From Squalus acanthias (Eukaryota), in NCBI GenBank assembly GCA_030390025.1, contig CM059430.1, positions 11,098,001-11,162,000 of the forward strand: DNA of 64,000 bases, given 5' to 3'. How positions within the stretch are numbered: the first letter of the stretch is position 1; each line of letters starts with the position of its first letter. A program made the translations under genes and the position numbers. The notes beneath the pieces were generated by a model. The model did not search any database. It saw only the letters and a program-made list of their open reading frames with translations, and was not told where the DNA came from. Shown in pieces: positions 9,958 through 62,580 of the stretch.

Positions 9958-10427
9958 ACATCTTTCGTTTAGGCACGCTACAGCCCTCTGGACTCAATAT
10001 CGAGTTCAACAATTTTAGATCATAACCTCAGCTCCAATCACATTTATATTTTATTTTTTCCACCCTTTTATTTGTTCCCCCCCCCCACCTTTTTTTTCCT
10101 CCTAGAAGCTGGCAGCTGTCCTTCATTCTGCCAGTGGATTTCACATTTCATTCAGCCTTAATCTGTCACATTAACATCACCTCTAGCCTTGCATATCTCT
10201 TAATGTCTCTTCATCTCCCCCTTTGTTCCTTTATCCCCTCCCCCTTTTCCCAGCTTTACCCTGGCCTTAAATCTATTTGATTTCCAGCTCTTCCCAGTTC
10301 TGATGAAAGGTCATCGACCTGAAACGTTAACTCTCTTTCTCTCTCCACGGATGCTGCCTGGCCTGCTGAGTTTTTCCAGCGTTTTCTGTTGTTATTTCGG
10401 ATTTCCAGCATCCGCAGTATTTTGCTA
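9958..10427 (+). mobile_element. Penelope-like element, 5'-truncated 3' end (GIY-YIG C-terminus + terminal region with hammerhead)
   Basis: 9960-10025 translates IFRLGTLQPSGLNIEFNNFRS*, typical of the PLE GIY-YIG C-terminus. A pyrimidine-rich tract and a tail shared with the 22.2, 23, 33.8 and 62.4 kb copies follow. Confidence 0.75.
10295..10334 (+). ncRNA. Minimal type-I hammerhead ribozyme motif
   Basis: AGTT-CTGATGA-A-AGGTC(ATC)GACCT-GAAA-CGTT-AACT: core boxes, 5-bp stem II, palindromic ACGT stem III, AGTT/AACT stem I. Confidence 0.7.
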
Positions 10428-13400
10428 TCAAAAAAATTAAGTTAATTGTTTGCACGTAATACTCCACAGGGTTTAATGTTCCCCCCCATTAAATACAGTT
10501 AAACCCATCTGCAGATCCGATATAAGCACATTTCGGATATAAGCATCTCGATAGCGAGTCCCAATTTAGCCCTGAATTGCAAAAAACTGGTATAGCTGTC
10601 ACTTGTCTTATAAGCAGGCTCGATCAGAATCAGCTTTAATGTTTACCCCAACCGTATACACAGAAGAAACGAAATGGCAATATAATTTTTGACCCTCTTA
10701 TGAATCAGTGGCCACTCATATTTCACGTTTATCGAAACCAGTTTAAGCAAGTATAAAAAATGCTGTATCTCGGTTCATTTTTCAAACTGCCACTTTTATC
10801 AGCTCCGGCGAATTCGAGATAAATGGATTCCAGATCTCCTTCTCTTCGATTGATTTTTTTAGGAGATGCAGCAGGAAAATCACCAGCTGGTCCATTTAAA
10901 AGTTTATGCAATCGGTAAAATGGTGATGCTACAGCTTTAAATGTTGAGTGCATTGTTTAAGTGAGCATGCCTATGGGGGATGGGCATTGCAATTCCACCG
11001 AGCAGCACTAGAGGTCTCACTTCGAGGTTCTTATTGGTTGAAAGGTGCACTGAACAGGGTACTGACATAGCCGACTTGACTTTAAGTAAACACATATGAT
11101 AAGGGACTATCACTGTTAAGTGAATATAATTAGAAACAAATGCATATCTACAGCTATTTCAATGGTGCTGGTTTAGCGAATTTTTGGCCAGATCAAACCT
11201 CAGTCAGTTTCCATGTCTCTTCATGGCGATACCCGCAAAATAATGGCAATGTGAACAAATTAAGGAGGGCAACATGTTTTCGTGCAAATGATCATACAGC
11301 AGAGAAAAGATAAATCTGGAGTAAAATAGAATACAGTCATACCCAATATACACTAGTTAAACATTCCCTCAGATACCGGGAGCAAAAGATATTTTTTTAA
11401 AAAGAATGTGTTAGAACTTTGAAAGAGAAAATGGTGTAAATGCACAGCAGGCCGGTCAGCGTCTGAAATAGAATGAAAGGTTGGTTGGGGTCTGCCCTTC
11501 ACCAGAATGGGTTAGACTCTGGGTTGGGAGGCAGTGAAGTGCATGTGTTATCATTACCGTGAAAATGGGATATATGAGATATGCATCTGAAAAACAATTG
11601 GTAAGAACATAAAGACACATCCAATAATAGAAGTAACGGGATAGGGAATTCCGAGATCTACACAACATAACTATTTTCTTTCTTGCACAATAGTAACAAT
11701 TTAATAAACCCCCTATACTAAACGTACCCGTAAATATAATCCAATCTAGTATGATGGAAATTGAATTGTACAGGCTCACGTTGAGACAGTTTCGAGGTTA
11801 TCTGAATAGTAATATGTAAGTAGTGAATTTTCTTTGCAGTTGAATTAGAACAAAGAATTACACATTCTTTGCAGTTTCTAGATTGTGTGTTTCAGCTTTG
11901 GAAATACTTTTTAACAATGGTTCTTGCTATAAAAACAACGCTCCTCGGGATCCAACAAGAAAGCTCTTGTCAAATGCAGTGTGCCCAAAACCCATCTGTG
12001 CAAATTTAATATAAGCACATTCCTGGCAATGGTTTAATACATGCTGGTCGTTCCAACTTTGCAATTGTGTTCCTAACATAGCCAGTGATGAGTGTAGTCA
12101 ATGTTGTTAGATGCAAGTTTTGTACAACGTCTCTGTGTCTCTCCCGACTTGCCACATAAACCAGGATTATACTGGTTGAAATTCGTTTTTTCTCCAGTAC
12201 GGGGAAATGGCAGATGAGAAGCGCATCTAAGAAAGATAACGTGGGTTGGTGTAAGAACCGAACAAAGGCTCTCTGATGTTAATGATCAGATCTACTGGAA
12301 CAAATACTTCTTGGAGTCAAAGATTAAAAAAGATAGACGGTTTATAATGATGTAAGATTAACTGCCAAGTTTAATATTCTGATATCTAAATACAGTACTG
12401 TCCATCTAGAGTGAATGACATGTTCGGATCATTAATTGCTCTCGACTGGCCCTGTAGCACCGAAAGAACAAAAGCAAAGTGAGTTCAGTTTTTAGATATG
12501 AAACGACTGGGAAAAGTTATTGAGACTTGGGCACCCACAATAGAGACAAAATAGTCATTAGGTATATCCGTCATTCGGGTTCAACTTTCTTTAATTTCGT
12601 TAAATTATATTAGAACAGGTCTTAAGAATTTTAGATTTAAAAATAGTTTTGTTTTTATGAAAGCAATTCGCTTAGGATTTCATGATTCAATTAATCACAT
12701 TATAATTTAGCACATTTCCTTCATCCTCTGGAAAACTCTGACTTGTGTTTTGTGCAAAGACTTTAGCAATAATGATATCTCTAAGGTATCATTTACTAAT
12801 CGAAGGAAAATGCGCACTTTCTACCCAAATGAGCCAGTTTAAAGTAACATGGAACAGCCCGGGGGTGCCAGCATACACGTGTCGCTCAAACGCCGCTCAA
12901 AGGCAGTAAAGGCACACTCGCTGAGATTTGCTAAATAATTGAACACTTTCAAATTAGGTAAACATTTGATAAAAAAAACAAGCTCTGATCTCAAGTACCT
13001 AACCGGTGATTAGACGGATTTTACAAGGTTCCATTTTACTTGTTTTGAGATTATATACAATGCAAATCACACCCATTTTCGTTGACATGCTGTACACAAG
13101 AAAAGGTAAATTGCTGTTAAATGAATACAGGATTATATTTAGCACGAATTGGCAGTACTGGAGACTAAAGGCAACCTCTACTGTATGTTGTTTGATAGTC
13201 AAATAACGAAAAATGAAAGCGGTGTGCTATCATCCTATGCTGTTTTTCAAGTTAGGAAGTGTTCACTTTATCATATATAAACATTATTGCCTTTTGTCTC
13301 ATCTGCTACAGCGTAATATATTGTTATTTGCATTTTTATTAATCCAGGATTGCTATTCTAACCAAATAAAACTAAACTGGCAATATTTGGTTATTCATGA

Positions 13401-16400
13401 TATTATTATGTGTTGCTGAGCTTTTAAAAATATGGCAATTCGTGCTGATTGTCACACATGGTTCCTTCCCAGTGGATGTATTGCTGTACATGTGTTGGCA
13501 TCCTCGTTTGGATATAGAAAGTACTTCCAGACACCTCAAGCTGACTTCTATAGATTAAAAGACATACGACCATCCCTCTAGTAACCTGGGTCCAATTGCC
13601 ACAACTACTTCTTTGCCTTTTCATTACTGACTGGTGAAATCTCTTTAGGGACGCGGTGGGTTGAGCATTAGCAGGAGTGGGGATTGTAAACTGCTGTTAG
13701 TTTACTGTGACCTGTCGTTTCCTAACCCTTCTTTGGTCGAGGTAGCTTCAAGGATCTCTCTATAGGCTCTGAGGTAACCAAATATAGCCCTCTCAGTGTT
13801 CCTGTCTATTTTCCAACCCCCGGGTTTGCCAAGATGCAGCGCAGAAGAACCCCACTTCAGCCACCTGGGGAACATTTCCTACCTGTGCAACGTGTAGGGA
13901 AATCGTAAAGGCGCTTTAAACAAGAGGCTTATCATTTCGTTATCTAGTGCACCGAGGAAATCTTTCTCCTTTTTGGCCAACAACGTTTTCCAATGAGTTC
14001 TTAAGTGTGCGGTATCTGTATTTATTCAGGCATGTCATCAAGATGAGAGGTTATAATTTGCAAGTCATAAGCAAGTAGACCCAAACTACTCAAAGCGGTC
14101 ATTGGTGTATGTAATTCGAATCTTCAAATTTGATGCGTTCTTGAAGTCTAACCATGTAACTGGTTCATTTAATAAACTGGGAGAATACCAGGTCGCTCAT
14201 ACAAAGCAAACATGATTTTCAGTCCAATATTTTGGTCATTTTTCGTTTGCACTGTATCTGAGTATCTGAGTAAAGCCCGAAAAGCTTCATTCTGAGCTCG
14301 CAAACCATTCATACATCCCAGCAAACACTTAGAGGAATAATTCCACTGGGATATAACCGTGTGGAAACGATGCGCGCTGATTTTTTATTTATTGCCCTTT
14401 GCATTCTTCATTTTAATGATCTTTAGAAATTCAAGCGAGAAAACGCCACGCAGAGAGGGATCCGAATGATTTGCAGATTTTCCATCATTTTTTCCTCATA
14501 GAACATTAAATGCTTCTAGACTTGTACACACCAGGCAATCTGCGAATCATGGCGATTCATTGAGGCCGCTCAAATAGATCAGGCGGGACAATATTGGGGA
14601 GGTTACATGCTATGGCCTTGCAGACACTGTGGAATATGCTGTCTGCAGCTATTTTCTGTGATTGTGCCATTAGTTGGATGGGAGCTGTCCTCCGTTCGTG
14701 TTGTACTCATCCAATTCAATCTGCAGAACGCTTATGTATTAACTTTTTTTGTAGAAAGAACTGACCAGTGTCCCAACTAGCAGAAGAAAAGCGATCGTGA
14801 GCGCGGGATTCTGCTTCCTCCAGGCTGCACCATCACCGAATAACAGTCTGGATTTTAACCTGTTAATGGCCGCGCCAGCATTCGCGCATCGCGCCCTAAA
14901 CTAACACAGAGCAGTTGGATTTCTATTTTTGGGGGAAAAAAATCTTTTGTCTTTACTTTCTGTTGTGCTGGGTGACACTCGATGTTATTTTCTCAACGCG
15001 CCGTTCTGTTAGACAGAATAACAGCAAAAGTAGCAAGAGAGTTGCTCAGAAGTTAAAGTGTTCGAAGGGTTTAACAAAAAGTTCATTATTTCAAAACTCA
15101 CGCTGCTGAAAGCTAAATAAGCCAATCATTTTCTCGATGGGTGGTATCTGTGTAACTCAACATAGCTACTCCACATTCTCGCTTTGATGAATTGATGCTA
15201 TAGTCACAAAGGACATCAATCATAAAACACACATTCCATTAATCACGATCAAACTTGCCAGCAGACACAGCCAGTAACTTGGCCCATTTTCAATTTCTGC
15301 ATTTGTTGAACTAAACGTTTGTCCAAAGTAGTATGGGAGCACGTTGAGGTTTATAGGGGAGAGAGTCACTATTGCGAGCCAACATGTTTTCTACTGCTCC
15401 ACGCACTTGCGTCTTCCTCCGATACGACACATGTATTGTCAACCAAAAATCCGCATTGTGTGGTTATAATATACAAACAACAATCTTTATTAAGCTGAAT
15501 GCAATCCCAAGCCTTAAAAAAAACCCACATCAAAATGGATGCAATTACCTTTTAGACCACACAATCAACATTAACGAATGCAGTTGTTCTGTGTCGCATC
15601 TGAGACTTTTGGGGGTTTCTTTGATGTTTCTTTAAAACCCATCCTGAAATCTAGTTGACCAAGCAAAGTATTTACCAATTCCAGATTGCTGAACTTTTCC
15701 CGCACCATTAAAATGCACTATTGAAAGCACTGGACTTGAACACGATATAGTCCTTTAAAATATGCTGTTAACAAGTATTGGGGAACCACGGGAGACTAGA
15801 AATGAATTTGAAGTTCAACTATTTGTATCGAAAAAGCTTTTATTTGTTGATTGCACTACCCCCTTCTGAATCATTAACCGGTCAGTTTCATAAATTCAAA
15901 AACAGACATTCGACTTAGTTTGATTTAGTTGAATGCAAGGGTTAAAATACATTGCAGTGTCGCCACTACTCCAGCCCCAGTGACATCCAGATCACTGTTC
16001 TCAGACTCATCGCAAGAGTTCATGATAATGATGAGCTTAGAGTCTCCTGGCTAAGCTAGTTTAAGTACTAACTAACTCCAGGCAGTGGAAGACCACAGAC
16101 AAACGTAAGGTTACGGTTAGTATTCTAACCGATCTTGCGACAAATATAAATATTCTCGGCAACGAACTATCACTACAAGAGTGTGCAGTCTCTTAAAAAG
16201 TGACTGGCATGGGTTAGGCATAACAACTGAAAATCGTGGCGATGCACTTTTAATGTATTTGTGTTTGAATAAGAATTGATTTATTAAAATATAGTGACGG
16301 GGACAGTACTTTTTGGAAAGGGGAATGCATATTTCCCGCGTGTTTTTAATAAAAGTTTTATACTTTCAGTAACACACAGATAACTGAATAAACGCAGATT

Positions 16401-17787
16401 ATATTTTTACTTACTTAAAGAATCTTAAATGTATTCACATTTGTTCAGATGGGCTCCGTTTTTAATATTCCGTTTAGGAGCAGGTACCTGGAGCACAGTC
16501 TGCCAGTGTTCTCAAAGTGGGACACTGAACTTCAAAATCCTAGTGTTAAATTAGATTTTTTTGCTAAGAATGTCAGAAGATAATACAACCTATTCTATTA
16601 GTGTTCATTTACACTATAATTTTAGTCTCACTATGAAGCATCACAGTGCCAATATGACTCCATATATAAGTGATGGGAGACTCCCTGGTAAAGGTAGTCT
16701 CCTATCTCCTGGGCACTTTTTAAACCTTCCTGGAGTTGTAACCTAAAACCTGATCAAACCTAAAACATTCCAATCTGACGAAACTATCATTGAATTCTAG
16801 TTGAGATGAGCCTGTGTCTACTTAACACTCAGACTTTGTTGCTTTAAAAGGACACAGCTCCATTTCAGAACAAAAAATACATTGCGCTTTTTCAAGTATA
16901 GCACTCTTGTCCTTATAGAACAGAGTGTCATTTTGACTTACCATGGGCAATGTTACAATAGTGTTTTTTCTTAAAAAAAAATGCTTGTTACATATTCTGG
17001 GAAAGGCCCCATAATGAAGAGCATGATAATTACAGAATGTTTTATTCATTTTTAGGAAGCTTTTTCAGAATCTTCTACCAGGATGTATGTTCATGGTAAC
17101 ACATCCAGAATCTGATTAAATTTGGAGATTTCCTTTTCCCTAAACGTTTAGGGTGTTTATTTTACGCTGCACCCAGAAATAAAACTGTATTTACATTTTT
17201 GTGAGGTTGACATTCCACAATGTAGTTGCATGGTTGCCTACACTTAAGCAGGTCAGTAAAATATGAGACATGTTGATATATTTGAAATCTCGATACACAA
17301 AACTCTCAAAATCTTTCCAAGTTATATTGTTTACAAGATATACAGCTTGGCATGACTTAATGCAATGACAACTGTATGATTTAAATTTATACCTTACGGG
17401 CAGTTCAATATACGTGCATGATTTATGGCACTCTTTACCCACTATGTGTTTGTGATATAAGCTGTTGTGTATGATCCAAGTTTACATACAGTGAACTGCA
17501 ATAATGTGCAAACTTCAAGTCCTTACCACAGGCAAACTCATTAATTTGTCAAATAACGAGTTTACAGACAGCTCTTTCCCTCCACACATACCCACACAAG
17601 CAACATTAAGATGACAACAAGTACAGTTTTTGCAACAGCTGATGAATGGAACCTGAATAAAAAGAAAATACAAAATTGCAAAGGTTAGGTTAGAACTTTT
17701 TGCCCAATGTATGTGTTGATTTGTTATGAGGAAAGGTAATTACATTTCAGGGTCTTTTATAAACTCATACATACATACATATATAGT

Positions 17788-22130: not shown

Positions 22131-22199
22131 GGAAGCAAGTCATTGGCAGAAATAATGGAGGGAAACAAAAAAAATTATATGCTTGGACATATGTTTATC

Positions 22200-22298
22200 T
22201 ATTTCTCTGTTTACAGATGCTACCTGACCTACTGAGTTTTTCCAGCATTTTCTGCTTTTATTTCAGATTTCCAGCATCCGCAGCATTTTGGTTTTGTA
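22200..22298 (+). mobile_element. Penelope-like terminal fragment (no ribozyme core)
   Basis: cagatgctacctgacctactgag...gatttccagcatccgcagcattttg matches 10345-10427. Confidence 0.7.
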
Positions 22299-22329
22299 TT
22301 ACTGTTTAACTCCCTGCCACTTCTCTTCT

Positions 22330-22920: not shown

Positions 22921-22964
22921 GGAATGCCCACCTTGAAGAAGTTCTGCTCTTCTCTCCGACGGGA

Positions 22965-23972
22965 TTTCCATTTGTCTCTTTTACCTTGTTCATCTTCATT
23001 GCTTTCTGTTTCCCTTGTGTTTGCCTTCCATCCTATCACAGACCTTCCTTTTTGTTCTTTCTTCCCCTCCCCCCTTTCCCTGCCCCTACACTTGCTTAAA
23101 AACCTGTTACATCTCCAACTTTTTCCAGTTCTGACGAAGGGTCATCGACCTGAAACAATGGCCCAAAAATTAGTGAGGGAGCCTTCGTGCGAGGGTAAGG
23201 CTTCCCCGCGATCTCTCACTGCGCGTTGGCTTTTTCATTCCCAGCTCGCACGAACTTGATGTTCTGGACAGCTGCTGTGCTGGGCTTCCGTATCCCACAG
23301 GCGCAATTAATTCGTGCGAGCTGTGGGATCACGTGACTCAGTTAGAGCCAATGGCAGCACACCATCTTTCATTCATAGCTTTCACAACAAGTGCTGTGAA
23401 AGCTATGAATCTATACCCCCCAAAAGAACAGCTAAACCTCAATTAAATTTTTTAAAAAACCATCACATTAATAAAATAAGTATAGTTAAATAAATTAACC
23501 ATTTTAAACAAAAAATTAAATTTTTGAAAAAATTTAAAATCTTTTAAAAAGTTATAAAAATAAACTTTACCTTTCTTTAAAGTCTCTAAAAAAGATATAC
23601 CTGTTGAAAAAAATTCAAAATAATACTTAATTAACTACTTACCTTGTTAAAAGAGGGTCTTACGCCTCCTTTCTTTATGTGTAAAATCTTCCATGCTTAC
23701 CTGCGCGTTCAAAGCACTAAGTGCACTGCGTGCGCGCAGCCTGTAGCGCGCACGCGGTTCACTTAGGAACCGCCCCCTTTTGAAATCACCAAGTGCCGGT
23801 TTTCAGCGCATGCGCAGTGCATGCTGGAAACCGGCAATTGGAGACAGAATACGCGAGAGTACACAGTGCGTACTCTCGCGTAGCAACACTAATTTTTGGG
23901 CCATTAACTCTGTTTCTCTCTCCACAGATGCTGCCTGACCTGCTGAGTATTTCCAGCATTTTCTGTTTATCT
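22965..23972 (+). mobile_element. Penelope-like terminal region with hammerhead core, interrupted at 23160-23902
   Basis: CTGACGAAGGGTCATCGACCTGAAAC at 23131-23156; resumes ATTAACTCTGTTTCTCTCTCCACAGATG at 23903. Confidence 0.75.
23160..23902. mobile_element. Harbinger-like non-autonomous element, family A, copy 1 (743 bp)
   Basis: Perfect 16-bp TIR GGCCCAAAAATTAGTG; 3-bp AWT flanks; several internal hairpins. Confidence 0.85.
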
Positions 23973-33380: not shown

Positions 33381-34418
33381 ATAAGAACACAAGAACATAA
33401 GAAATAGGAGCAGGAGTAGGCCATTCGGCCCTTCGAGTCTGCTCCGTCATTCAATCAGATCATGGCTGATCTTCTACCTCAACTCCATCTTCCCGCACTA
33501 TTCCCATATCCCTTGGTTCCCTTAGTATCCAAAAATCTATCGATCTCTGTCTTGAATATATTCAAAGAATGAGCATCTACAGCCCTCTGTGGTAGAGAAT
33601 TCCAAAGATTCACAACCCTTTGAGTGAAGAAATTTCACCTCATCTCAGTCCTAAATGGCTGACCCCTTATTCTGAGACTGTGACCCCTAGTTCTAGACTC
33701 CCCAGCCAGAGGAAACATCCTCCCAGCATGTACCCTGTCAAGCCCCTTAAGAATTTTATACATTTCAGTGAGATCACCTTTCATTCTACTAAACTCTAGG
33801 GAATATGGAATAAAAACAGAAAATGCTGGAAATACTCAGCAGATCAGGCTGAATCTGTGGAGCGAGAAACAAGAGTTAACGTTTCAGGTCGATGACCTTT
33901 CATTATAACTGAACTACGGAATATAGGCCTAGTTTACTCAATTTCTCCTCATAGGACAATCGCCCCATCCCAGCAATCAGTCTAGTGAACCTTTGTTGCA
34001 ATCCCTCTAAGGCAAGTATATCCTTCCTTAGGTAAGGAGACCAACTGTACACATACTCCAGGAGTGGTCTCACCTAGGCCCTATATAATTGCAGTAAGAC
34101 TTCCTTACTCTTATACTCCAATCCTTTTGTAATAAAGGCTAACATACCATTTGCTTTCTTAATTGCTTGCTGTACCTGTATGTTAACTTTCTACGATTTG
34201 TGTACAAGGACACCCAGATCCCTCTAAATACCAACATTTCCCAATCTCTCACCATTTAAGAAATATTCTGCTTTTCTATTTTTCCTACCTAAGTGGATAA
34301 CTTCATATTTCTCCACATTAAATTCCATCTGCCATGTTCTTGCCCAGTCACTTAACCTATCTACAGTATATCCCTTTGCAGCCTTTTTGCGTCCTCTTCA
34401 CAACTTACTTTCCCACTC
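33381..34418 (-). mobile_element. CR1 LINE 3' portion with nested Penelope fragment
   Basis: (AAGAACAT)n tail and hairpin; collinear with the 47870-48660 CR1. Confidence 0.9.
33807..33917 (-). mobile_element. Penelope-like terminal fragment with mutated hammerhead core
   Basis: 7-bp TSD GGAATAT; minus strand reads AGTT-ATAATGA-AAGGTCATCGACCT-GAAACGTTAACTC. Confidence 0.8.
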
Positions 34419-35618: not shown

Positions 35619-38600
35619 AAGAACATAAGAACATAAGAAATAGGAGCAGGAGTAGGCCAATTGGCCCCTCGAGCCTGCTCCGCCATTCAACAAGATCATG
35701 GCTGATCTGATCCTAACCTCAAATCTAAAGAACACAAGAAGTAGGAGCAGGACCCGGCCACTCAGCCCCTGGGCCCGCTCTGCCACCCACAGGGCCTTGA
35801 CCAATCCGAACTCAGCCTCATGTCCAATTTCCTGCCCGCTCCCCATAACCCCTAATTCCCTTTACTTCTAGGAAACTGTCTATTTCTGTTTTAAATTTAT
35901 TTAATGATGTAGCTTCCACAGCTTCCTGGGGCAGCAAATTCCACAGACCTACTACCCTCTGAGTGAAGAAGTTTCTCCTCATCTCAGTTTTGAAAGAGCA
36001 GCCCCTTATTCTAAGATTATGCCCCCTAGTTCTACTTTCACCCATCCTTGGGAACATCCTTACCGCATCCACCCGATCAAGCCTCTTCACAATCTTATAT
36101 GTTTCAATAAGATCGCCTCTCATTCTTCTGAACTCCAATGAGTAGAGTCCCAATCTACTCAACCTCTCCTCATATGTCCACCCCCTCATCCCCGGGATTA
36201 ACCGAGTGAACCTTCTTTGTACTGCCTCGAGAGCAAGTATGTCTTTTCTTAAGTATGGACACCAAAACTGTATGCAGTATTCCAGGTGCGGTCTCACCAA
36301 TACCTTATATAACTGCAGCAATACCTCCCTGTTTTTATAATCTATCCCCCTAGCAATAAAAGCCAACATTCCGTTGGCCTTCTTGATCACCTGCTGCACC
36401 TGCATACTAACTTTTTGATTTTCTTGCACTAGGACCCCCAGATCCCTTTGTACTGCTGTACTTTCCAGTTTCTCGCCATTAAGATATTGGCCCAGAAATT
36501 TGACTCGGAGGCTTGCCGCGGGGGTAAGGATTGCGCGCGATATCACACTCCGCGCCGGCCGTTGTGTTTTGGGCCCACAGGAACTTCGGGTCCTGGGCCT
36601 CTCCCTGGTGCCGGCGCGCAGTGTGTGCGTGTCCCAGGGGCGCAGTTAGTGCGATGCGACCTCTGGGATCACGTGGGCCATGGAGAGCCAATGGCAGCAG
36701 ACTATCTTTCATTCATAGATTTGACAGGAGACATGTCAAATCTGTGAATTGAAAGAGACCCCAAAAGAACAGCTAAACCTCAAATAAATTTTTTAAAAAA
36801 CCATTACATTAATAAAATAACTATAGTTAAATAAATTAACCACTTTAAACAAAAATTTAAATTTTTGAAAAAATTTTTTTTTTTTTAAAAGTTATAAAAA
36901 TAAACTTACCTTTCTTTAAAGTCTCTAAAAAAGATAAACCTGTTGAAAAAAATTAAAAATTATACTTAATTAACTACTTACCTTGTTCAAAAGGGGTCTT
37001 ACGCCTCCTTTTTACATGTGTAAAATCTTCCATACTTACCCTCGCGTTGAAACCTGAAAAAAAACCTAAGTGTGCTGCGTGCGCACAGCCTCTAGTGCGC
37101 ACACGGTTCACCTAGGAACCGCCCCCTTTGCCATACCGGAAGTGCCGGTTTCCCGCGCATGCGCAGTGCATGCAGGAAACCGGCACTTCGCGATCTAATA
37201 CGGGTGAGTACACAATGCGTACTCTCCCGTATTAGGCCGAATTTTGGGGCCAATAATTTGCTCTCTGATTTTTCCTGCCAAAGTGCATAACGTCACATTT
37301 TCCAATATTGTATTGCATCTGCCAAATCTCCGCCCACTCACCCAGCCTGTCTATATCCCCTTGTAGGTTTTTTATGTCCTCCTCACTTTCTACTTTCCCT
37401 CCCATCTTTGTATCATCTGTAAACCTTGATATGTTACACTCGGTCCCCTCCTCCAAATCGTTAATATAGATTATAAAGAGTTGGGGACCCAGCACCGACC
37501 CCTGCAGAACACCACTGGCTACTGGTTGCCAGTCCGAGAATGAACCATTTATCCCAACTCTCTGCTTCCTGTTAGATAACCAATCCTCCACCCATGCCAG
37601 AATATTACCCCCAATCCAGTGATTTTTTATTTTGAGCAATAATCTTTTATGTGGCACCTTGTCGAATGCCTTCTGGAAGTCTAAATACACTACATCCACT
37701 GGTTCCCCTTTATCCACCCTCTACGTTATGTCCTCAAAGAACTCAAGCAAATTTGTCAGACATGACTTCCCCTTCATAAAGCCATGCTGCCTTTGTCCTA
37801 TTAAATTATGTTTATCTAAATGTTCCGTTACTGTCTCCTTAATAATAGACTCTAAAATTTTACCCACCACAGATGTTAAGCTAACTGGTCTATAATTTCC
37901 AGCCTTCTGCCTACTACCCTTTTTAAATAAGGGTGTTACATTAGCAGTTTTCCAATCTGCCGGGACCTTTGCTGAGTCCAGGGAATTTTGCAAAATTATT
38001 ACCAAAGCATCCACAATCCCAACTGCCACTTCCCTCAAGACCCTAGGATGTAAGCCATCAGGTCCAGGGGATTTATCCGCCTTGAGTCCCCTTATTTTAC
38101 TGAGTACCAATTCCTAGTGATTTTAATCGTATTTAGCTCCTCCCCCCCTAGAGCCCCCTGTTTGTCCAGTGTTGGGATATTCTTAGTGTCCTCTCCCGTA
38201 AAGACTGAAACAAAATATTTGTTCAGCATTTTTGCCATCTCCATGTTTCCCACCATTAATTTCCGGTCTCATCCTCTAAGGGACCTATGTTTGCCTTAGC
38301 CACCCTTTTTCTTTTTATATAACTATAGAAACTCTTGCTATCTGTTTTTATATTTTTTGCTAATTTATTTTCATAATCTATCTTCCCTTTCTGAATCAAT
38401 CCTTTAGTTACTTTTTGCTGTCTTTTGAAGACTTCCCAATCTTCTATCCTCCCACTAAGTTTGGCTACCTTATATGTCCTTGTTTTTAGTCGGATACTAT
38501 CCTTAATTTCTTTACTTAGCCAAGGATGGCTGTCATTTCTTTTACACCCTTTTTTCCTCAGTGGAATATATTTTTTTGAAAGTTGTAAAATAACTCCTTA

Positions 38601-45054: not shown

Positions 45055-46627
45055 GCGGTAGAGTTTCCGCTAGGTTACGCTGGTTTGAAGAGCGCGAGTT
45101 GCCTGAAATCAGCCAAACCAGCGTAAAAGGTCGAGAAATTTCAAGCGCAAGTTATGTCCAGTGCAAATCAAGTTTCCACGATATTTTACGCTGGTTTAAA
45201 AAACATTGGCCCAGAAATTCACGTGTCCAGCTTGCCGCGGGGGTAAAGGATCGCGCGCGCTCTTACCTACCACGCCTGCTGTTGTGTTTTGGGCCCACGG
45301 GAACTTCGGGTCCTGGGCCTCTCCCAACTGCCGGCGCGCAGTGCTTGCGTGTTCCAGGGGCGCAGTTAGTGCGATGCGACCCCTGGGATCACGTGGGCCA
45401 TGGAGAGCCAATGGCAGCAGACCATCTTTCATTCATAGATTTGACAGGAGACCTGTCAAATCTGTGAATTAAAATCGGCCCCAAAAGAACAGCTAAACTT
45501 AAAATAAATTTTTTTTAAAACCATCACATTTATAAAATAACTATAGTTAAATAAATTAACCACTTTAAACAAAAATTTTTGAAAAAATTAAAATACTTTT
45601 TAAAAGTTATAAAAATAAACTTACCTTTCTTTAAAGTATCTAAAAAAGATAAGCCTGTTGAAAATTTTTTAAAATTATACTTAATTAACCACTTACCTTG
45701 TTCAAAAGGGGTCTTATGCCTCCTTTTTATTAGCGTAGTATCTTCAATACTTACCCTCGTGTAGAAACCTGAAAAAAATCTAAGTGTGCTGCGTGCACGC
45801 AGCCTCTAGTGCGCACGCGGTTCACCTAGGAACTGCCCCCTTCACCATACCGGAAGTTCCGGTTTCCCACGCATGCGCAGTGCATGCAGGAAACCGGCAC
45901 TTCGGGAATGAATATGGGTGAGTACGGACTGTGTACTCACCCGGGAAGGGCCGAATTTTTGGGCCATTGTGCTGGAAGCCGGCCCCGCCCACAAAACTGG
46001 CCCCGCCCCCAGATTGAATTAATGAGCTTGGCGAGTTTCCGTCAATTACGCCCATTTGCGGCCCTTCAAGGAGGCGCTTCAAATTAAGCTGGCTTTTTAG
46101 GTTCAAAAGTTTTTAAATATTAAAAATATTTAATTGACTATGAAACTGACTACTGTACACCAACGAAACTAGTAAATGGTTCAGTATTGTTATTTAAAGT
46201 GATTTTCAGTTATTTAAAATCAGGTTACTCACAGGTGGTGGACTAGACACTCTTATTAAAAATGCTTATTTTTGGTGATAAACCCATTTTCAGCTGTATT
46301 AATAAAACTGCATCAGGTTCTCTTAAATACATCAAGGAATATTTTTTAATGCAAGGGGAAAATAATGAATAATTACATTCTAAAACGTTGCCTGATTGCG
46401 CTGGTTCATGGAAGATTCCACTTTCATGATTATGCAAATGAGTTTGAGCGGTAGCTTGAGCCATAACTTCACTTTGGAAAACCAGCGCAATTTCGAGCAC
46501 AATTTGCACCTGGATTGCCGATTGCGCCCAAAGCAGAAAATCTACTAAGTTGCACTTACGCCTTATTACATCAATTTGTAAAATGGGCTGGCGACTCACT
46601 ATTTTACACAAAGTCAAGATCTACCCC
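45055..46627. mobile_element. Harbinger-like element family B (inverted vs 21181 copy), hosting family A copy 3
   Basis: Ends GCGGTAGAGTTT / AAGATCTACCCC; 45970-46530 is a reverse-complement match to 21200-21730. Confidence 0.65.
45208..45965. mobile_element. Harbinger-like non-autonomous element, family A, copy 3 (758 bp)
   Basis: GGCCCAGAAATTC ... GAATTTTTGGGCC; perfect TSD ATT/ATT; highly similar to copy 2. Confidence 0.85.
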
Positions 46628-51996: not shown

Positions 51997-52480
51997 AACA
52001 ACAACTTGCATTTATATCGTGCTTTAACATAACAAAACGTCTCAAGGTGCTTCACAGGAAGATGATCAGACAAAAATTGACACTAAGCCAAAGTGGGAGC
52101 CATTATGAGAGGTGACCAAAAGCTTGGTCAAAGTTCTAAGGTGCATTTTAAAGGAGGAGAGAGAGGTGGAGAGGTTTAGGGAGGGAATTCCAGAGTTTAG
52201 GGCTGAAGGCACCGCTGCCAATGGTGGGGCGAAGGATGTTGGTGATGCACAAGAGTCCAGAATTGGAGGAATGCAGAGTTCCTGAAGGGTTATAGAACTG
52301 GAGTAGGTTACAGAGATAGGGAGGGGCAAGGCCATGACGATATTTGAACACAAGGTTGAGAATTTCAAATTTGAGGCGTTGGTGGACCGGGAGCCAATGT
52401 AGCTCAACGAGCACAGGGGTGATGGGTGAACGGGACTTGGTGCAGGTTAGGATACGGCTAGCAGAGTTAGGATATGGGCA
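51997..52480 (-). mobile_element. L2 LINE 3' end
   Basis: ELHWLPVHQRLKFEILNLVFK...GLAPPYLCNLL; tail ATATAAATGCAAGTTGTTG. Confidence 0.8.
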
Positions 52481-53723: not shown

Positions 53724-53811
53724 CGATATTTACAGGCAGAGAGACACCAAATTTGTCAGAGGACAGAGCTATGCCATTTGCTGCAAGGATACCTATAGCT
53801 AACATGCACCA

Positions 53812-54120: not shown

Positions 54121-54121
54121 T

Positions 54122-54780: not shown

Positions 54781-55589
54781 ATGAGTTGGTAAATAAAGAA
54801 TACTTATCACAATCTCTTCTTTCCTAGTATCTCGCTCTCTCATATTATTATTTAGGCTTTAATGTTCCTTTTTTTTACTAATCTACTCCCCTTTTCTTAT
54901 TAAAACACTTGACAATAAGAGGCCAGAAATATTTCAATTTTTACATGGATGCAACACAGCTTTAATGCTCCATTTGTGCACAGCGTGCGGTATAACTCCA
55001 GTTTGAGATCATCAATCTGAGTGTGATGCGAACTTTAGGAAATGGTGAGACAGCACCTCCATGACATAGACTCACACAGCTTGGGCATCAAATAGTTTGC
55101 AGTAGAACTGCGGCTGCCCTGAGGTCATCTGTTTCTATAGTTCAAAATGACGCAGCTGATCTCCTGTGCCATTGCTCACAGGTAATAGGGATCTGCAGCA
55201 CAGTTGTACTGTTTAGCTGCTCATCTTGACTGTCCTATTACAGCCACTTTCAGTTAGTCCCGGTAGGGAAGAGATCTAAATAGGTCCTGAGGTCAATTAG
55301 AGACTAATTATTGGTATTGTTGTACTTCCTTTAGATTGGTAGATGCTTGAATTTGTCTCCTTGTTATCTCAAGAACTCTTCTAGGTTATCAAAGGTAAGA
55401 AAAAAAAACATAAATAATTGGATTTCTTCTCATTTTTCCTCAAGATTGTTCAGTCACTGTTTTATATGAAGTGTAACATCTAGCCTAGAGCATGGAATCT
55501 GGAGTATCAATTGAGTAGAGATGGTGGGAAAGCAACATGATCATGGACCTCTACAATGGCAGTCTTGAACCAGCCATTAAAAGAGCAGC

Positions 55590-55835
55590 TCAGCATTCCT
55601 GGGTTGAGGAATGGAAAATCGTCCAGGATTCCTACTGTACAGTAGCCCCAACTGATGTGGATATTGGTTGAGGTCAGGATTGGGTCGGCTGTAATGCCCT
55701 CCAGAGTCAGATAGCCTACCAGCACTCAATGTCCAGGCTCACACGTGATAAATGGGCACTTGAGTAAGGTGCCAGAGGATGACTACCACCTGTGAAACTG
55801 TACCACAGTAAAAGAGTCAATGCCTTCAAGAAAGG
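55590..55835 (+). mobile_element. Old SINE-like repeat (same family as 21040-22130)
   Basis: ggctgtaatgccc...cactcaatgtccaggctcacacgtgataaatgggcactt. Confidence 0.55.
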
Positions 55836-57929
55836 AAAGGAAAGAGAGAAAATTGGTAAGGAGATAAAAGGGCCTTCCATATTGACTTGTCCTCTAATTT
55901 AATCCCTTTTCACATGTGAAGAAGCATCTCAACTCTGCTCAGCATCTCTCCTGCCACATCACAAATTGCAAATGTGAATTCAGAGCCTACTACATTGTGA
56001 GGAAAGCACTATTGTGCCAAGGCTTTAAGCAAGGAAAGTACATTAGTAGCAATTAGAGGACTTCTTTAACAATATATAATTATTGACCCTTTAGTTAACA
56101 GAACAGTCCGCAAAGTTTCAAACAATACTACTTGTTTTCTATCATTATGGTATTTGCCAAAACAACTTTCTGTAAATTGCGATAGTCTTCCAATTTCTAC
56201 TTTTTATTCTTTGCATAAGTAATGGTAGAACTCTCCTGTCATATTGAAAGCTGATTACATGTAACCTTTGAGCCTGTTCCAGCCTGTTGCATGTATCCCA
56301 TTCAAGCCTTGGAAAATGTACATAGTTTTAAAAATATTTTAAAATTTACCATATTCTTCAGGTTAATTAAAAATGTAGTCTTCTGTTTTTTTTAAATAAA
56401 AGCCCTTTTGTTTTGTAGTTCTGAAAAGTGTTAACAGTCTCTCTCACTCTACATCTCTCTCACACGCACCCACACAGTTTTCTGGATCACTTGCCATGCT
56501 GCCAGGAGCCGCGGATAGTGACAGGGGAGGGGTGGATCTAATGCTGGGCTCTCCAGCTCAAAATTGCCAGAAAACCACTATAAAATTACCATCTTCCTTC
56601 TCACGCACTGCAACCAATCCCAATGACTGGGCACATGGTTCTCAACTGTTGACGAAAGGAAATCGTTGTGATTTCTGCTTGTTTCTTACTTCAACTACAA
56701 AAAGGTCTATTCATGTCAGCTAATTGTGGATCAAGGAAAACATCACAAGCATGATCTGATCCCTAACACACAAGCCCTAGGTTTCAGTGCAGTACATTTT
56801 CAGGACTTTGGAAGAGAATTTAACAATGTAAAAGTGAATGGAATTCCACAGCCTAGCCCCAGCAAGTAGGTGGTAAGACCTATTTATAATGTAGCTATCT
56901 TGATGGTACAATATCATTTTTCGAACAGGAGCGGTCAGTTTGGGTTTATACCTGCTCACTTGCATCGTTTTCGAACCAGTTCTGTGCAAGTCACCAGCCT
57001 CCAACCGCCGGTGAAATTCTTAAAAGTTAGTAAAAATAAAGCTGGCTATCCTATTACCTCTTCAAACTTAACGTTTAGTGTTACTGATGGCTTGGAGGAC
57101 CACTTGAAAAGTTTCAGAATTCAGTTTTTCCATTGGCTGCAGCCAGTGTGAGACGACATCCTCTGGGTGGTCTCACTACACAAGAACATTCCTGAACTAA
57201 AGTGGCGAGGCACCGTTATACTGTACTTGTGCTGCTACCTAGTCTGGGTGCAACACAAAAACAATTTCACACCCATGCAAGACATGCAGCAGAACTGCCC
57301 CATGAGGAGCATTCTCAGCCACCCTTGCGCGCTATATATAAAATGGTTGCTTTATACTGCAAGTAAGATCATCAATAAATTATAATGGAGATATGAATTA
57401 AAGGTTCCATCTTACCCAGAAATATGCATTAAGCAAGTAATAAAGCTCCAGCTTGGGAAAAACTGCTCTTAAATGGAAGCACTCCTGTTAACTGACATTT
57501 TATTTTCGTAAAAGCGGAATTTTGCTAAATTTCCTCAGATGGAAGTTCCTTCAATGGCCATTTAGTCTCAGCTGTGGAGATCATCGAAAAGGAATCTAGA
57601 AAGTGTGACTCGTAATGTTTTTATAAAAGAAGGAGGTTGGTCCCAATGTTCCAATGTGCAGTGCAGTGGCGCCTGACTGACTGGCTGGACTATGAACAGC
57701 ACTGAAACAAAAAGGTTCAACGCAACTAACTTCAAGTATTTTTTGGGGGGCTAAATATTGCCCTTGTCAAAGTGATAGATGTTAATCTTGAGAAATAGAA
57801 TTGTTTCCTGCTTTTATTACCCAGGGTCTAGGTTGTGCTGAGCTTGGGTTTGCTGTGGACTAAATATTCTACACTCTTTCTCCAACAATATACTTCAATC
57901 TAAACTTCAGAACTTTCCCCTCTCTTCTC

Positions 57930-58212
57930 CACACTGCATCTGTGTGGCATTTCCATTTCCCACACCAGCCATTCCTGTGGCGTCTCTCAGTAAGACTGAC
58001 AATGTAGCTCCAATTAGTGCCAAGTTATGGTCAGTCTAGTGCTGTGGAGTCGTGCTCATAAGGAGCTTGAATGAAAGTGCCAAAACTCATTTCAATTAGT
58101 CCCTTTGTAACCGGCAGAAAGAGGAGACTTCCATTTCATCAGTCTGGTCTGGATATAAACCTGGATCGCAGAATTAAAAGGACAGTGCATTGGCCCAGTG
58201 GATTAACCACTG
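57930..58212 (-). mobile_element. LF-SINE-like element
   Basis: Minus strand has GAAATGAGTT, TTGGCACTAATTGG and CAGTCTTACTGAGAGACGCC in LF-SINE order, after a tRNA-like head (compared with consensus from memory). Confidence 0.45.
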
Positions 58213-58313
58213 CACAACCTATTCCCTGAACTCCGAAAAATGGAAGAATTTAAGAGCAAACTTAACAGGAAATGCTTATCTCTGTGAGCACTATTGATTC
58301 CAACAAAAATGAT

Positions 58314-59927
58314 GGCCGGAATTTTCCCTACCTGGGCGGGTCGAGTGCGGGCAGTCGCCATGGCGGGTCGCGAGCCCGTTGCTGGTTCCATCCCGCTCCA
58401 CAAAACGACTTTACTTCAATAGGGCCTATTAAGCCCTCCCTGGGCATTGCCCGGCCCAATGAAATGATGTGGGTCTGCTGACGTCATCCATGATGCGTTT
58501 TCAGCCGGGATATTTAAAGGGGCCATGGGCACATTACATTTGAAGGTTAATCTAAAATAGTGCAGTCAGTGCACTACAGCACTGGAGTGCTGCAAACACT
58601 GGAAATGACTGCACAGAGGCAGAGGGCTGCACCCAGGTTCTCCGATGACTCCCTCCATATGCTTGTGGAGGGAGTCAGAGCATGCAGGGAGGTCCTCTTC
58701 CTTTCCGATGGGCAGAAGAGACCTCCCCAGGAGACCAAAACAGCAGGTTGGAGATTGCAGAGGCGGTCAACAGCAGGGATATGGTCAGGAGGACTTGGGT
58801 GCAGTGCTGCAAACATTTCAATTATCTCATTAGATCAGGAAACGTGAGTACAAAGCCACACTCAACTTCATCCTGCTGCGCCTCTCATCACATCGCCATC
58901 ACTCTGCCTTCCCAACCCTAGTCCTGCACATCCTTACTCAAACCAACATACCTTACATGTCCACCCATCCCTCTCTTTCTATCTACATTATCACATCCCC
59001 ATCTCACTAGCCTCTCCTCACACTCACCCTCATCCTAGCACAATCATACCAACTAACAACACACAAGGAGGCCAGTTGGCTTTGGCACTCACGCCATCAT
59101 AGTCTCCCTCTAAAGATATGACCCATCCATTCCTTACACTCATTCCAGCACTTTCACTCAACCTTCTCTTCTTTCCCTCCTTGCAGGAAAAGAGAGCCCA
59201 AAATAAGATGGAGAGGGGGAGATCCAGTGGTGGCCCTCTGTCCAGTGCAGCATCAGGCGATTACAGAGAAGGTTGGTGTTGTTGTTGGTGCTGCTGGTGT
59301 GCCTGGTGCTGCTGGTGTTGGGGCTCATCATGGTCAGATTCTGAGGACCAAGGTGAGACAGTATAAATGGCACCCATGTTGATGGACTACATGGCAGGTG
59401 AGGTCGAGATGACAGAAGCATTCCGTCAATGGTGAGAGAGGTTCTTCCAATGAGGTGACACTGGATGCAGACTTTGCTGGAAAGACTTGCAGCCTGCAGA
59501 AAACTCAATCTGTGCTGGGAATGCAGTCAGCAACAACTTCTGTCTGAGGAAAGTGATCAGCTGTTAGGTGGGAGCTTTTATACTACATTTGATGCTGTCA
59601 ACTAATCAGCTGGATCAATGGCCACTCAACTCCCGCCTCAGGTTGACAGACATGGTTCCCAAGCAATGTGAATCCCTTGGGCATCCAGTGAAATTGGAAA
59701 GGTAAGGTTAAAAAGACTCTTAAGGGTCTGACAACAAGCTAATAATCTTTTAAATTGGGTCGCCCGCCTCTGTCGTTTGGGTCGCTGCCGCTTCGGCAAA
59801 CGCGCCCGAGGGAAAGATGCATGGAGGTGGGATGATGGCGAGTTCCCGACCCGCTACAAGATATTTCAACTTTCCCACTACGACCCACCTCCGTTCATGC
59901 CCGCATGGTCCCCGGAAAATTCCGGCC
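58314..59927. mobile_element. Internally deleted PIF/Harbinger transposon with Myb/SANT-like gene remnant (1614 bp)
   Basis: Perfect 14-bp TIR GGCCGGAATTTTCC; 3-bp TSD GAT/GAT. Confidence 0.88.
58605..59240 (+). pseudogene. Harbinger Myb/SANT-like DNA-binding protein, frameshifted, intron 58844-59186
   Basis: RAAPRFSDDSLHMLVEGVRACREVLF.../LEIAEAVNSRDMVRRTWVQCCKHFNYLIRSGN|GTGAGT...TTGCAG|EKRAQNKMERGRSSGGP. Confidence 0.75.
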
Positions 59928-60624
59928 GATGTCTTTAATTAATGGGTGGGATTTTGTGGTCACGTAAAACTTACACTTGCCTATAGACTTTTTATGGGCT
60001 TTTGCACTGAAAGTTCCTCTCAGTCAAATACCCAAACAGTGCAGTTTACAGAGCATCTGGGAACTATGTGAACAGAGCAGGCAACAGAGTCTGAACCTGG
60101 AAGTGTCAGTTAGAATCATGAATTCAATGTCAAATCAGGTACAGAAAGCCAAATAAAGAGAGGGGAAAAAAGATTGGACTAAGAGAGAGAGATAAAAGAG
60201 ATAGAATGCAAAAGTAAAAAAAATGGTTTATCTAAATTTGTAATTTTTTTTTCCTCTGTAACAATAATTAAAATCTGAAGGAATGAGGATCCACACTTGT
60301 AAAAGTTAATTTTCAGTGCCAGAGAGGTTGTTTGGCAGTAATTAAGATATCACCCCATTAAAAGGATACTTACACTTGAATGGATAAGCCCTAAGTCTTT
60401 CTGCCGCGTTTAATTTGTATATATCAGGTTAAGTGCAGCAACTTCACGCCATTCCATGTATTTGAATGTTGAGCCTCTCGGTGAGATACCATTATCGTGC
60501 AGCTTTTGGAGGAGCAGGGCATCTCGGACAGTACTTTCCTGATTTCCACATTTAACTGCACATGTGCAGTCGCTGGAAGTCCGCATTTCCATGCAAATAA
60601 CTTTTTTTTGTTTTTTTGAATTTG

Positions 60625-60962
60625 TTCCTGGGTCATTGGCAATGCCAGCATTTATTGCCCATTCCCTAATTGCCCTTGAGAAGGTGGTGGTGAGCCGCCT
60701 TCTTGAACTGCTGCAGTCCGTGTGGTGAAGGTACTCCGACAGTGCTGTTAGGGAGGGAGTTCCAGGATTTTGAAGGAACGGCCGATATATTTCCAAGTCA
60801 GGATGGTGTGTGACTTGGAGGGGAACTTGGAGGCGGTGGTGTTCCCATGTGCCTGCTGCCCTTGTCCTTCTAGGTGGAAGAGATCGCGGGTTTGGGAGGT
60901 GCTGCCGAAGAAGCCTTGGCGAGTTGCTGCAGTGCCTCTTGTAAATGGTACACACTGCAGCC
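60625..60962 (-). mobile_element. Non-LTR retrotransposon 3' end
   Basis: CTIYKRHCSNSPRLLRQHLPNPR...HTILTWKYI and 3' GGGCAATTAGGGAATGGGCAATAAATGCTGG. Confidence 0.65.
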
Positions 60963-61894
60963 AGGGTGAGCTGTTAGCCTCACCGTTATTTCTACTGCAC
61001 AATCCTGCACATTAAGCCCAGGGCTGTGGCATATTTCTCCTTATTTTCTTACCCAAAATGAATGCTGTCACAGTTTGGTAGGTGACATCGGATCTATAAC
61101 AGGAAAAGTAATCCCACTGCCATTACAGTCAATTCTTGTTAACTGAATAATTTGTTTTACATAAGAGTTTATTATTTATCAGGAGCTCACAGTAACATTA
61201 ATATTAATTTTCTATTGCACAATTTCTTGCATGCGTTTAATTACGATGGAATCTTGCCCAGAATGTAAACTCTTCCATAGTTTTATGAATTTTGACTGGC
61301 TATAATTTGGTAGAAATAACACAAGTCATGCATTAAGTGACTGTGCATTGTGGGGACCACAAACACTATTAAAAGGGTAACAACAGCAAAAAAAATCTGT
61401 ATTTACTTAACACGAGTACACCGCTACAATTAATCAGTTAACATGACTGAATACTTTCAGTTAGTATAAAAAAAGGCATTTAAATCTCTCGAACTTGTTC
61501 AGAGACTTCAAAGTTTTCAAATGTCTCTTGGGTCTGGAACTTGGACAAAAAGCCACTCACTGGTGTCAGGAAGCAGCTCTTATATGGTCTAACAAGGGCT
61601 AACACCATCCATCGGCCTAGATGCCAAATCCAAGCATCAACAACTTTAAAATTCAATAGCCGGTTTAATATATGTAATTTGTTTTTTTTGCGAAAGAAGG
61701 CTCACATTTCCAAGGTAGGATGGAAAAGGATGTCAAACACTCCTAACACTAAGAGAGCTGAAATCTGCATCGAATCCTCAAGTAACTCCTAGGAAGAGTC
61801 ATGATTAGCATCCCTGTGGTCCTCAATGCAAATCAGTAGATGTCATGGGGTACAGTAGCACACAGGAGGTGAGTGGAGAAGATTAAGGGGTGTT

Positions 61895-62580
61895 AAATTA
61901 GGGAAAGGGTAGCAAGTTGGATTACAAACTGGTTAAAAGGGAGGAAACAGAGAGGAAACAGAGAGTAGAGTCGTGGCTGGAAGTGGGTAGCAGTGTTCCA
62001 CAGGGTTCTGTTCTGAGGTCGCTTCTGTTCAATGTGTACCTCAGTGATTTAGATATAGGGCTAGAGGCAGTGGTGTCCAAATTTTCACACAATACTGAAA
62101 TAGGAGGCATGGTAAATAATTCCGAGGACTAGAGGAAGCTGCAAGGGGATATTGATAAGATGGTGGAATTGGCAAAAAAAAGCGGATGATGGAATTCAAT
62201 GTCAATAAATGTGTGGTGGTATATTTTGCTAAAAAGAAATAACAGTAATAATCATACTTTAAATGGGAGAACGTTAGGTGATGTGGAGGAGCAGAAGGAT
62301 TCACAAGACATTAAAAGCAGCTCCTCAAGTCAATAAGGCCGGAAAAGAAAATGAAGGAATACTAAAATTAAAGCAAAATACTGCGGATGCTGGAAATCTG
62401 AATTAAAATGGTAGAAACAGTCACAACGGTTCTGATGAAAGGTCATCAACCTGAAACGTTAACTCTTCTCTCTCCACAGCTGCTGCCTGACCTGAGTGTT
62501 TCATTTGAGAATTTTCTGTTTTTATTTTAATGGCATACTACGTTTTATGGCAAGAGGTATAGAATATGAAAGTCGAGTTG
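61895..62580 (+). mobile_element. Old CR1 RT fragment with nested Penelope fragment
   Basis: SSVPQGSVLRSLLFNVYLSDLD...SKFS; resumes ggcatactacg...ARGIEYES at ~62531. Confidence 0.7.
62368..62528. mobile_element. Penelope-like terminal fragment: inverted tail plus plus-strand hammerhead (62428-62465)
   Basis: aagcaaaatactgcggatgctggaaatctg (reverse complement of the tail), then GGTT-CTGATGA-AAGGTCATCAACCT-GAAACGTT-AACT. Confidence 0.75.

Follow-up and report, generated by a model that had tools for sequence, protein, structure and literature searches.

The 64-kb stretch of shark DNA analysed here, hereafter the window, contains a FoxF1 open reading frame, whose best named match is from skate (93%), in line with a cartilaginous-fish host, together with six insertions of one repeat family (copies A to F, seven arms in all). 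The features of this family are listed below, in window positions.

9960 to 10025, forward strand: last 21 codons and stop, likely of a Neptune-type GIY-YIG endonuclease (IFRLGTLQPSGLNIEFNNFRS; published alignment, by eye)
9963 to 10426, forward strand: copy A, the longest of the insertions, truncated at its 5' end and lying in the end of another repeat; it comprises the ORF end, the 3' UTR, the hammerhead and the tail
10296 to 10332, forward strand: intact minimal type-I hammerhead of copy A, exact match to the published descriptor, predicted cut 3' of 10328
10397 to 10426, forward strand: optional tail of about 30 nt, carried by A, E and the inverted arm of D; B, C and the direct arm of D end without it
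11416 to 11507, reverse strand: copy F, older and decayed, its hammerhead broken; 13-bp target duplication (12/13)
22198 to 22290, forward strand: copy E, a tailed 3' end that begins close to the cut site, without the hammerhead core
22921 to 23156, forward strand: 5' part of copy B (its 5' boundary approximate), comprising 3' UTR and the hammerhead as far as position 15.2
23160 to 23902, no strand assigned: 743-bp MITE that interrupts helix III of copy B, bounded by terminal inverted repeats and flanked by AAT/ATT
23906 to 23969, forward strand: 3' part of copy B, helix I 3' strand and downstream sequence, no tail
33809 to 33913, reverse strand: copy C, a 105-bp insertion in a CR1-like LINE, core changes C3A and G5A, no tail, 11-13-bp target duplication
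62369 to 62423, reverse strand: inverted arm of copy D, a short 3' end with tail
62428 to 62528, forward strand: direct arm of copy D, no tail, hammerhead at 62428-62464 with an intact core and a 4-bp helix II

An earlier note on this DNA had described four copies, and all four sites indeed lie where it placed them, but copies E and F and the inverted arm of D had escaped it. Copy F was recovered with a profile built without it (E 1.8e-6). The note's account of the damaged copies agrees with ours: B is split by an insertion, which is the MITE (relatives of this MITE occur at 36489-37251 and 45208-45965), C has a mutated core with two altered bases, and stem II of D is shortened. The two altered bases of C equal the flanking LINE target bases in the same register, and may thus be junction sequence rather than point mutations; a simple alignment slightly favours point mutation (19/23 ungapped, score 15, versus score 11 for a junction).

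The motif of copy A was compared with the published descriptor of minimal hammerhead ribozymes of Penelope-like elements (PLEs), i.e. CUGANGA with an optional base, a helix II of 3-7 bp, GAAANNUH and a helix I of 3-7 bp (PMC4209133). Helix I (10296-99/10329-32) is followed by CTGATGA (10300-06), an extra A (10307), helix II (10308-12/10316-20) with a 3-nt loop, GAAA (10321-24), CG and TT (10327-28), and ACGT at 10324-27 constitutes the palindromic 15.1-16.1 segment, without a loop III. Both the extra A and the loopless ACGT stem III had been recognised previously. The stem sequences then given as common to the copies hold for A, but helix II of B has GGGTC and helix I of D has GGTT. Of the two cleavage triplets proposed, GUU is retained, with 4 bp in helix I, while UUA is ruled out by a helix I of 1 bp and a C/U mismatch in helix III.

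Over both strands of the 64 kb, the descriptor matched twice, in A (at 10300) and in D (at 62432), and neither B nor C matched. In D, the closing pair of helix II is broken by a G-to-A change, with 4 bp remaining and the core intact; the fit to the minimal type-I hammerhead proposed for a PLE terminal repeat is exact in A, and in D it has a shortened helix II. Block-wise dinucleotide shuffling gave one match in 16 of 2,465 windows and two matches in none. As the copies share descent, they amount to one independent motif, with about 0.0065 matches expected per window. Two matches in 64 kb correspond to 3,800-113,000 per Gb (95% range). The Rfam search that the note had advised returned no hammerhead match in three out of three attempts (whole window at E 5 and at gathering score; 111 bases around A at E 10).

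Among the copies, excess conservation of the core was not significant (off-majority bases 2/43 in the core versus 30/316 downstream, P 0.40), nor was that of the whole motif (6/141, P 0.06). Helix changes among the five near-identical copies, which hold little signal, were one-sided in two cases and two-sided in none. Conservation across genomic copies, previously put forward as a refuting test, is the wrong one for dead insertions, subfamilies being the proper level.

Copy A, although the longest, starts only 21 codons before the stop. Its ORF end shares 9 of 13 identities with each of Neptune-1_Ac and Neptune1_Nv (PMC8557442 alignment, by eye), and the succession of an ORF ending in I-x-R-L-x-T-x-x-P-x-G-L-N, a stop, a 3' UTR and a hammerhead is that of Neptune PLEs (PMC8557442, Fig. 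S2), while the Penelope and Poseidon rows of the alignment are without the G-L-N ending. The motif is also present in the Chlamys (8/13) and Naiad (7/13) rows, so that the Neptune call rests on the C-terminal position together with the hammerhead. Neither an RT domain nor a full-length element is present in the 64-kb window, and with the RT, the CX2-5CxxC linker and the GIY-YIG core all absent from it and 21 codons left, this clade call is tentative. A word-index search of longer proteins with the ORF-end peptide gave no candidate, and the 23-residue stretch had no Pfam family and no PDB match, negatives which weigh little as the query is very short. Three matches from an exhaustive protein search were rejected (two with cadherin-like repeats, one with only a weak DUF match), as was a remnant reaching back to about 9900, since 9900-9962 matches another repeat at 52002-52072. 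For the GIY-YIG C-terminus formerly ascribed to the 10-kb copy, there is a resemblance by eye, which is confined to 9960-10025 and which database searches did not confirm.

The 5' ends vary among copies, while the 3' ends are common and fall into two classes. In A coordinates, the tailed ends (A, E and the inverted arm of D) lie at about 10424-10426, and the tailless ones at 10396-10397 (C and the direct arm of D) and at about 10390-10395 (B). Over the seven arms, three have the tail, three lack it and one (F) is ambiguous. Copy D consists of two arms lying head to head, only one of which has the extra 30 nt, and is the one insertion out of six in which an inverted 5'-truncated copy lies beside a direct copy. 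Together, the two classes of shared 3' ends, the variable 5' ends and the head-to-head copy D with its one-arm tail are marks of PLEs. Indeed, a 30-40-bp tail, often at one end only and beside an inverted truncated copy, is a published PLE signature, whose form copy D reproduces, and insertions with tail and inverted repeat are known in Neptune PLEs (PMC8557442); another PLE case had a 31-bp tail and 8-10-bp duplications (PMC3846280). Target duplications, which in PLEs measure about 8-14 bp, were detected by an automated test in two of the six insertions, C (10/11) and F (12/13), random window pairs being as good in 18 and 4 of 3,000 trials, respectively. The same test found none for A, B, D and E; by eye only, D has a duplication and A a possible 8-bp one (9955-62/10427-34, 6/8). 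The cut site is spanned by five of the six insertions, which suggests that they were copied from uncleaved RNA.

The motif, the six insertions, the two 3'-end classes, two target duplications, the head-to-head pair and an ORF end 5' of the motif were thus seen in the sequence. We consider it highly probable that the copies are 5'-truncated insertions of the terminal repeat of a likely Neptune-type PLE, with a minimal type-I hammerhead for which cutting after GUU is predicted only in a dimer or with the assistance of the element's own protein. The shark family is a new example of the already published association of PLEs with minimal hammerheads, and its cleavage is a prediction from sequence. 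In line with the published motifs (PMC4209133), it displays an exact descriptor match, an extra base after CUGANGA, a palindromic 15.1-16.1, a 4-bp helix I, a U-rich 5' flank and mostly single motifs from truncated elements, and opposite-strand pairs have been described there as well. By our own count of the 56 rows of that study, the extra base after the core occurs in 54, a cut after U in 24, C-G-U-U after GAAA in 15 and a 3-nt loop II in 6; GUU and the extra A are common among published motifs. By contrast, the published consensus has G10.1-C11.1, which is not invariant (A-U in 3/56 rows), while copies A, C and D have A-U at this first position of helix II, and B has G-U. Cartilaginous fish are absent from the 56 rows, and activity in the shark is predicted. 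A literature search found no paper on this shark family, which Dfam or Repbase shark Penelope entries may already hold.

The Poseidon element PAc of the green anole (PMC11167929) likewise has a hammerhead in its terminal repeat and an optional tail. According to its coordinates, its main start lies 85-92 nt past the cut site, and the shark ends lie at about 68 and 98 nt; PAc belongs to a different clade, and its ORF starts at stem II. Insertion of the anole element relies mainly on uncleaved RNA as template, and its hammerhead requires protein for cutting (PMC11167929). By analogy with this work, the endonuclease of the shark element would nick AT-rich DNA, and its reverse transcriptase would have two alternative start sites, about 68 and 98 nt beyond the cut site, from which it would read through the uncleaved hammerhead and usually stop once about 100 nt had been copied. 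Any action of the hammerhead would be on tandem transcripts from full-length parents, and the scattered copies in the window are likely inert and decaying.

The most serious alternative has the same origin and differs on catalysis: the motif would descend from a PLE hammerhead, but cutting would have been lost even in the parent, the motif being kept in the terminal repeat in a structural or protein-binding role. We hold this to be possible, if rather doubtful. Only copy A is intact, and it has no neighbouring partner motif; its active dimer was predicted at -9.7 kcal/mol versus -19.3 kcal/mol for the best dimer, a prediction made with no positive control. Loss of activity would be in line with the A-U pair at 10.1/11.1, with competing folds in which core and helix II are paired (43% for A within its context, 97% for D), and with an A14-U17 pair that lowers the dimer energy by 2.4 kcal/mol. 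In addition, 8 of 9 predicted Xenopus dimers were uncleaved (bioRxiv 2026.07.22.740005), and insertion of the anole element was unaffected by hammerhead mutants (PMC11167929). However, all core positions are kept in A, in D and, up to the break, in B, despite the clear divergence of B from A upstream; the changes in B (position 7; A-U to G-U) and in helix I of D preserve the fold, and nearest-neighbour energies ignore the tertiary contacts of the core.

Alternatively, the short copies could be a non-autonomous family, of retrozyme or SINE-like type and with a master of its own, self-cleaving and spreading via circular RNA, which we find improbable. Metazoan non-LTR retrozymes share the type-I hammerhead and a relationship to PLEs, and have been reported, as tandem hammerhead units, in one chondrichthyan genome (PMC7229834; bioRxiv 2026.07.22.740005); here, four of the seven arms measure 92-105 nt, and three begin no more than about 10 nt from the core. 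However, retrozymes are tandem arrays giving circular RNAs, defined by at least two consecutive units, each with a hammerhead, while the shark copies are dispersed truncated monomers: the window has 10 tandem arrays, not one of which overlaps the motif of a hammerhead-bearing copy, and no copy is permuted at the cut site. As for a SINE, which requires an RNA-derived head containing Pol III A/B boxes, and a 5' end that does not vary, no A/B-box pair was found in 8/8 segments, nor any tRNA or Rfam match, and clustering of the 5' ends at the hammerhead was not significant (P 0.12, simulation with approximate ends). Copies A and B also extend 200-330 nt further 5', A into the ORF. The terms "retrozyme", for lack of tandem units, and "SINE-like", given the missing boxes and variable 5' ends, were consequently abandoned.

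It is very unlikely that the host has recruited copy A as a ribozyme of some non-coding transcript upstream of FoxF1: the copy is intact and sits on the strand opposite to the FoxF1 ORF, 7 kb upstream, but it departs from the majority at 5 of 65 downstream positions, similar to the other copies, and is without a partner motif, and the isolated copies near FoxF1 probably do nothing. A chance likeness inside an unrelated repeat can practically be set aside, since the negative Rfam result and a monomer fold no more stable than shuffles (z -1.08) are outweighed by the low expected number of matches, the position expected for a PLE and the independent PLE marks.

Returning to the PLE terminal repeat, we may speculate, with little confidence, that the hammerhead is wedged between two splice-acceptor-like sites, cleavage versus splicing sorting mRNA from insertion template, and that sharks hold one of the largest vertebrate stocks of hammerheads. 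The first site is a pyrimidine tract with a CAG ending inside helix I (10297), and the Penelope intron of D. virilis ends at the corresponding place in helix I. The second consists of a branch-point-like TTAAC, with its A 2 nt beyond the scissile bond, then a tract and CAG, for which copy A has CGG. A strict acceptor pattern occurred at 8 places in the window, of which two belong to the family, one in A at 10230 and one in B on the 3' side of the cut site, and GTRAG donors were found in 0/8 segments, which weakens the intron idea.

This work extends a known motif to a shark repeat family, and adds a case of the tail and inversion marks that the anole biochemistry explains. If the family is very abundant, it would offer thousands of junctions in which to ask whether PLE copies ever derive from hammerhead-cleaved RNA.

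The motif described in the earlier note is real, and its reading from the sequence as a minimal hammerhead in the end of a Penelope-like element (PLE) was correct, with activity predicted only. It belongs to a shark repeat family present as six insertions (copies A to F, taken as truncated PLE ends; seven arms in all, copy D being a head-to-head pair), which together cover 1,210 bp, or 1.9% of the window. The features concerned are as follows.

2180-3175, minus strand: Forkhead open reading frame, first coding exon of FoxF1 (protein match)
9900-9962, second occurrence at 52002-52072: end of a separate repeat family, target of copy A, presumably of L2-related origin
9963-10426, plus strand: copy A, with an optional 3' tail (10397-10426)
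10296-99 and partner strand 10329-32: helix I of the minimal hammerhead of copy A
11416-11507, minus strand: copy F
22198-22290, plus strand: copy E
22921-23156 and 23906-23969, plus strand: copy B
23160-23902: MITE in copy B, 743 bp, inverted ends, AAT/ATT flanks, interrupting helix III
33809-33913, minus strand: copy C
36489-37251 and 45208-45965: relatives of the MITE
62369-62423, minus strand, and 62428-62528, plus strand: inverted and direct arms of copy D

In copy A, helix I is followed by CTGATGA, an extra A, helix II (5 bp, with a loop of 3 nt), GAAA, CG, TT and the helix I partner. The descriptor of PLE minimal hammerheads (PMC4209133 supplement) matched only copies A and D in the window; one match occurred in 16 of 2,465 shuffled controls and two in none of them, and a stricter scan of our own design matched 1 of 395 shuffles. 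Rfam hammerhead models had been proposed as a check, and Rfam searches left the motif undetected. The predicted cleavage site of copy A follows the GUU triplet, on the 3' side of 10328; the alternative UUA register was dropped because it leaves a single helix I pair. Of 56 published PLE hammerhead rows (our own count; none from cartilaginous fish), 54 contain the extra base, 24 bear U at the cleavage position, 15 share C-G-U-U and six possess a loop II of 3 nt. In view of these frequencies, the extra A and GUU singled out earlier are ordinary, and the single uncommon trait of the shark motif is the first helix II pair, A-U (3/56). The ATG of the core in copy A also starts a stop-free, hydrophobic frame running through the tail (10303-10428, plus strand); copy B has ACG.

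Besides the descriptor matches, the PLE assignment is supported by two classes of 3' ends, by the form of copy D, by target duplications and by the open reading frame remnant of copy A. In copy A coordinates, 3' ends fall at ~10424-10426 in A, E and the inverted arm of D, and at ~10390-10397 in B, C and the direct arm of D; that of F is ambiguous between the two. PLE tails are described as optional, 30-40 bp long and often on one end, beside an inverted truncated copy (PMC8557442; PMC3846280), and this insertion form was found in copy D. Target duplications with one mismatch flank copies C (11 bp; 18/3,000 random pairs as good) and F (13 bp; 4/3,000), and the automated test gave none for A, B, D and E. 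Copy A starts with 21 codons ending an open reading frame, 270 nt upstream of the hammerhead. Compared by eye with the final block of the endonuclease alignment in the PMC8557442 supplement, this end shares 9/13 residues with each of two Neptune rows, 8/13 with a Chlamys row, 7/13 with a Naiad row, and 7/13 and 5/13 with two further vertebrate rows; the Penelope and Poseidon rows of that block are without the G-L-N ending. A loose six-frame pattern, built post hoc from those rows, gave one match against 0.0004 expected. Neptune appears to be the best fit, since Naiad and most Chlamys elements are described in PMC8557442 as having an N-terminal nuclease and no canonical hammerheads. The GIY-YIG C-terminus claimed for this copy is a candidate from the by-eye match; the peptide found no confirmation in database searches. 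Sequence beyond the downstream CAG pairs, in copy A, with the tail in a stem of 8-9 bp (10349-10415, plus strand), weaker in E, a candidate RT-binding structure.

The four copies first reported were all recovered, and a profile search raised the count with the coreless copy E, the inverted arm of D and, at E 1.8e-6, the decayed copy F; three more matches (E 2-4) were discarded as noise. In copy D the core is intact and helix II is without its closing pair; 97% of the predicted ensemble is misfolded, with the core paired to helix II. The MITE family of copy B (743-763 bp, GGCCC ends, AAT/ATT flanks, numerous internal hairpins) is presumably Harbinger-like; left and right flanks are unlike (AAT vs ATT) in two of three copies, and those in copy B (23157-23159 and 23903-23905) imply that a G -> A change in the ACGT palindrome predated the MITE. 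Copy C carries C3A and G5A. Because ~14 nt of its downstream LINE target (33772-33795, minus strand) resemble the hammerhead core and helix II and hold the same two bases, these changes may derive from the junction, point mutation being slightly favoured by alignment score (15 vs 11); copy and target could form a microhomology junction. Among the window copies, core and stems were not significantly more conserved than background (departures: core 2/43 vs flank 30/316, P 0.40; whole motif P 0.06), and two-sided covariation was not found, as expected of a small number of dead copies.

From a mechanistic point of view, five of the six insertions extend across the cleavage site, which suggests that their RNA template had not been cleaved at that point. 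This agrees with the anole Poseidon element, for which the main template is reported to be uncleaved RNA, reverse transcription to begin at two internal sites bounding the tail, cleavage to occur only with protein present, and insertion to persist in hammerhead mutants (PMC11167929). By analogy, a nick would be followed by internal priming ~68 or 98 nt beyond the cut site and by early termination. In four of seven arms (copies C, D, E and F) the length is 92-105 nt regardless of the tail; this could reflect limited extension during cDNA synthesis no less than a fixed 5' site. For published minimal hammerheads, monomers are described as lacking activity and dimers as weakly active (PMC4209133; review PMC6765202). 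Nearest-neighbour energies for copy A, computed without a positive control (active dimer -9.7 kcal/mol, best dimer -19.3), say only that cleavage would need help.

A pyrimidine tract and CAG end within helix I in copies A and B, at the position where the D. virilis Penelope intron is reported to end (PMC4209133). Past the cut lies a second acceptor-like site, in which TTAAC and a tract precede CAG (copies B, C and D) or CGG (copy A). Copies C, D and F start at most ~10 nt from the first site. Against an acceptor reading, the repeat is pyrimidine-rich over its whole length; clustering of 5' ends gave P 0.12, and no splice donor motif was present in any segment scanned. That two splice-acceptor-like sites used in splicing flank the hammerhead seems to us quite improbable. 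The retrozyme label is wrong for this family, as non-LTR retrozymes are defined in practice by at least two consecutive hammerhead units (bioRxiv 2026.07.22.740005; PMC7229834) and no copy in the window has a tandem partner; the SINE label is likewise wrong, there being no SINE head.

The best named FoxF1 match is the skate Amblyraja radiata (93%), followed by chimaera (86%) and coelacanth (84%), which makes an elasmobranch the most likely host; the remainder of the window is the upstream region of this gene. It consists largely of LINE fragments, which we take to be CR1-like. This label agrees with the expansion of CR1-like elements, alongside Penelope-like ones, reported in the whale shark (10.1101/443036). 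Neptune and Poseidon PLEs are reported across five vertebrate classes, and retrozymes in one chondrichthyan genome (bioRxiv 2026.07.22.740005). The part of the literature covered yielded no description of a hammerhead in this shark family, which is a new instance of a known arrangement.
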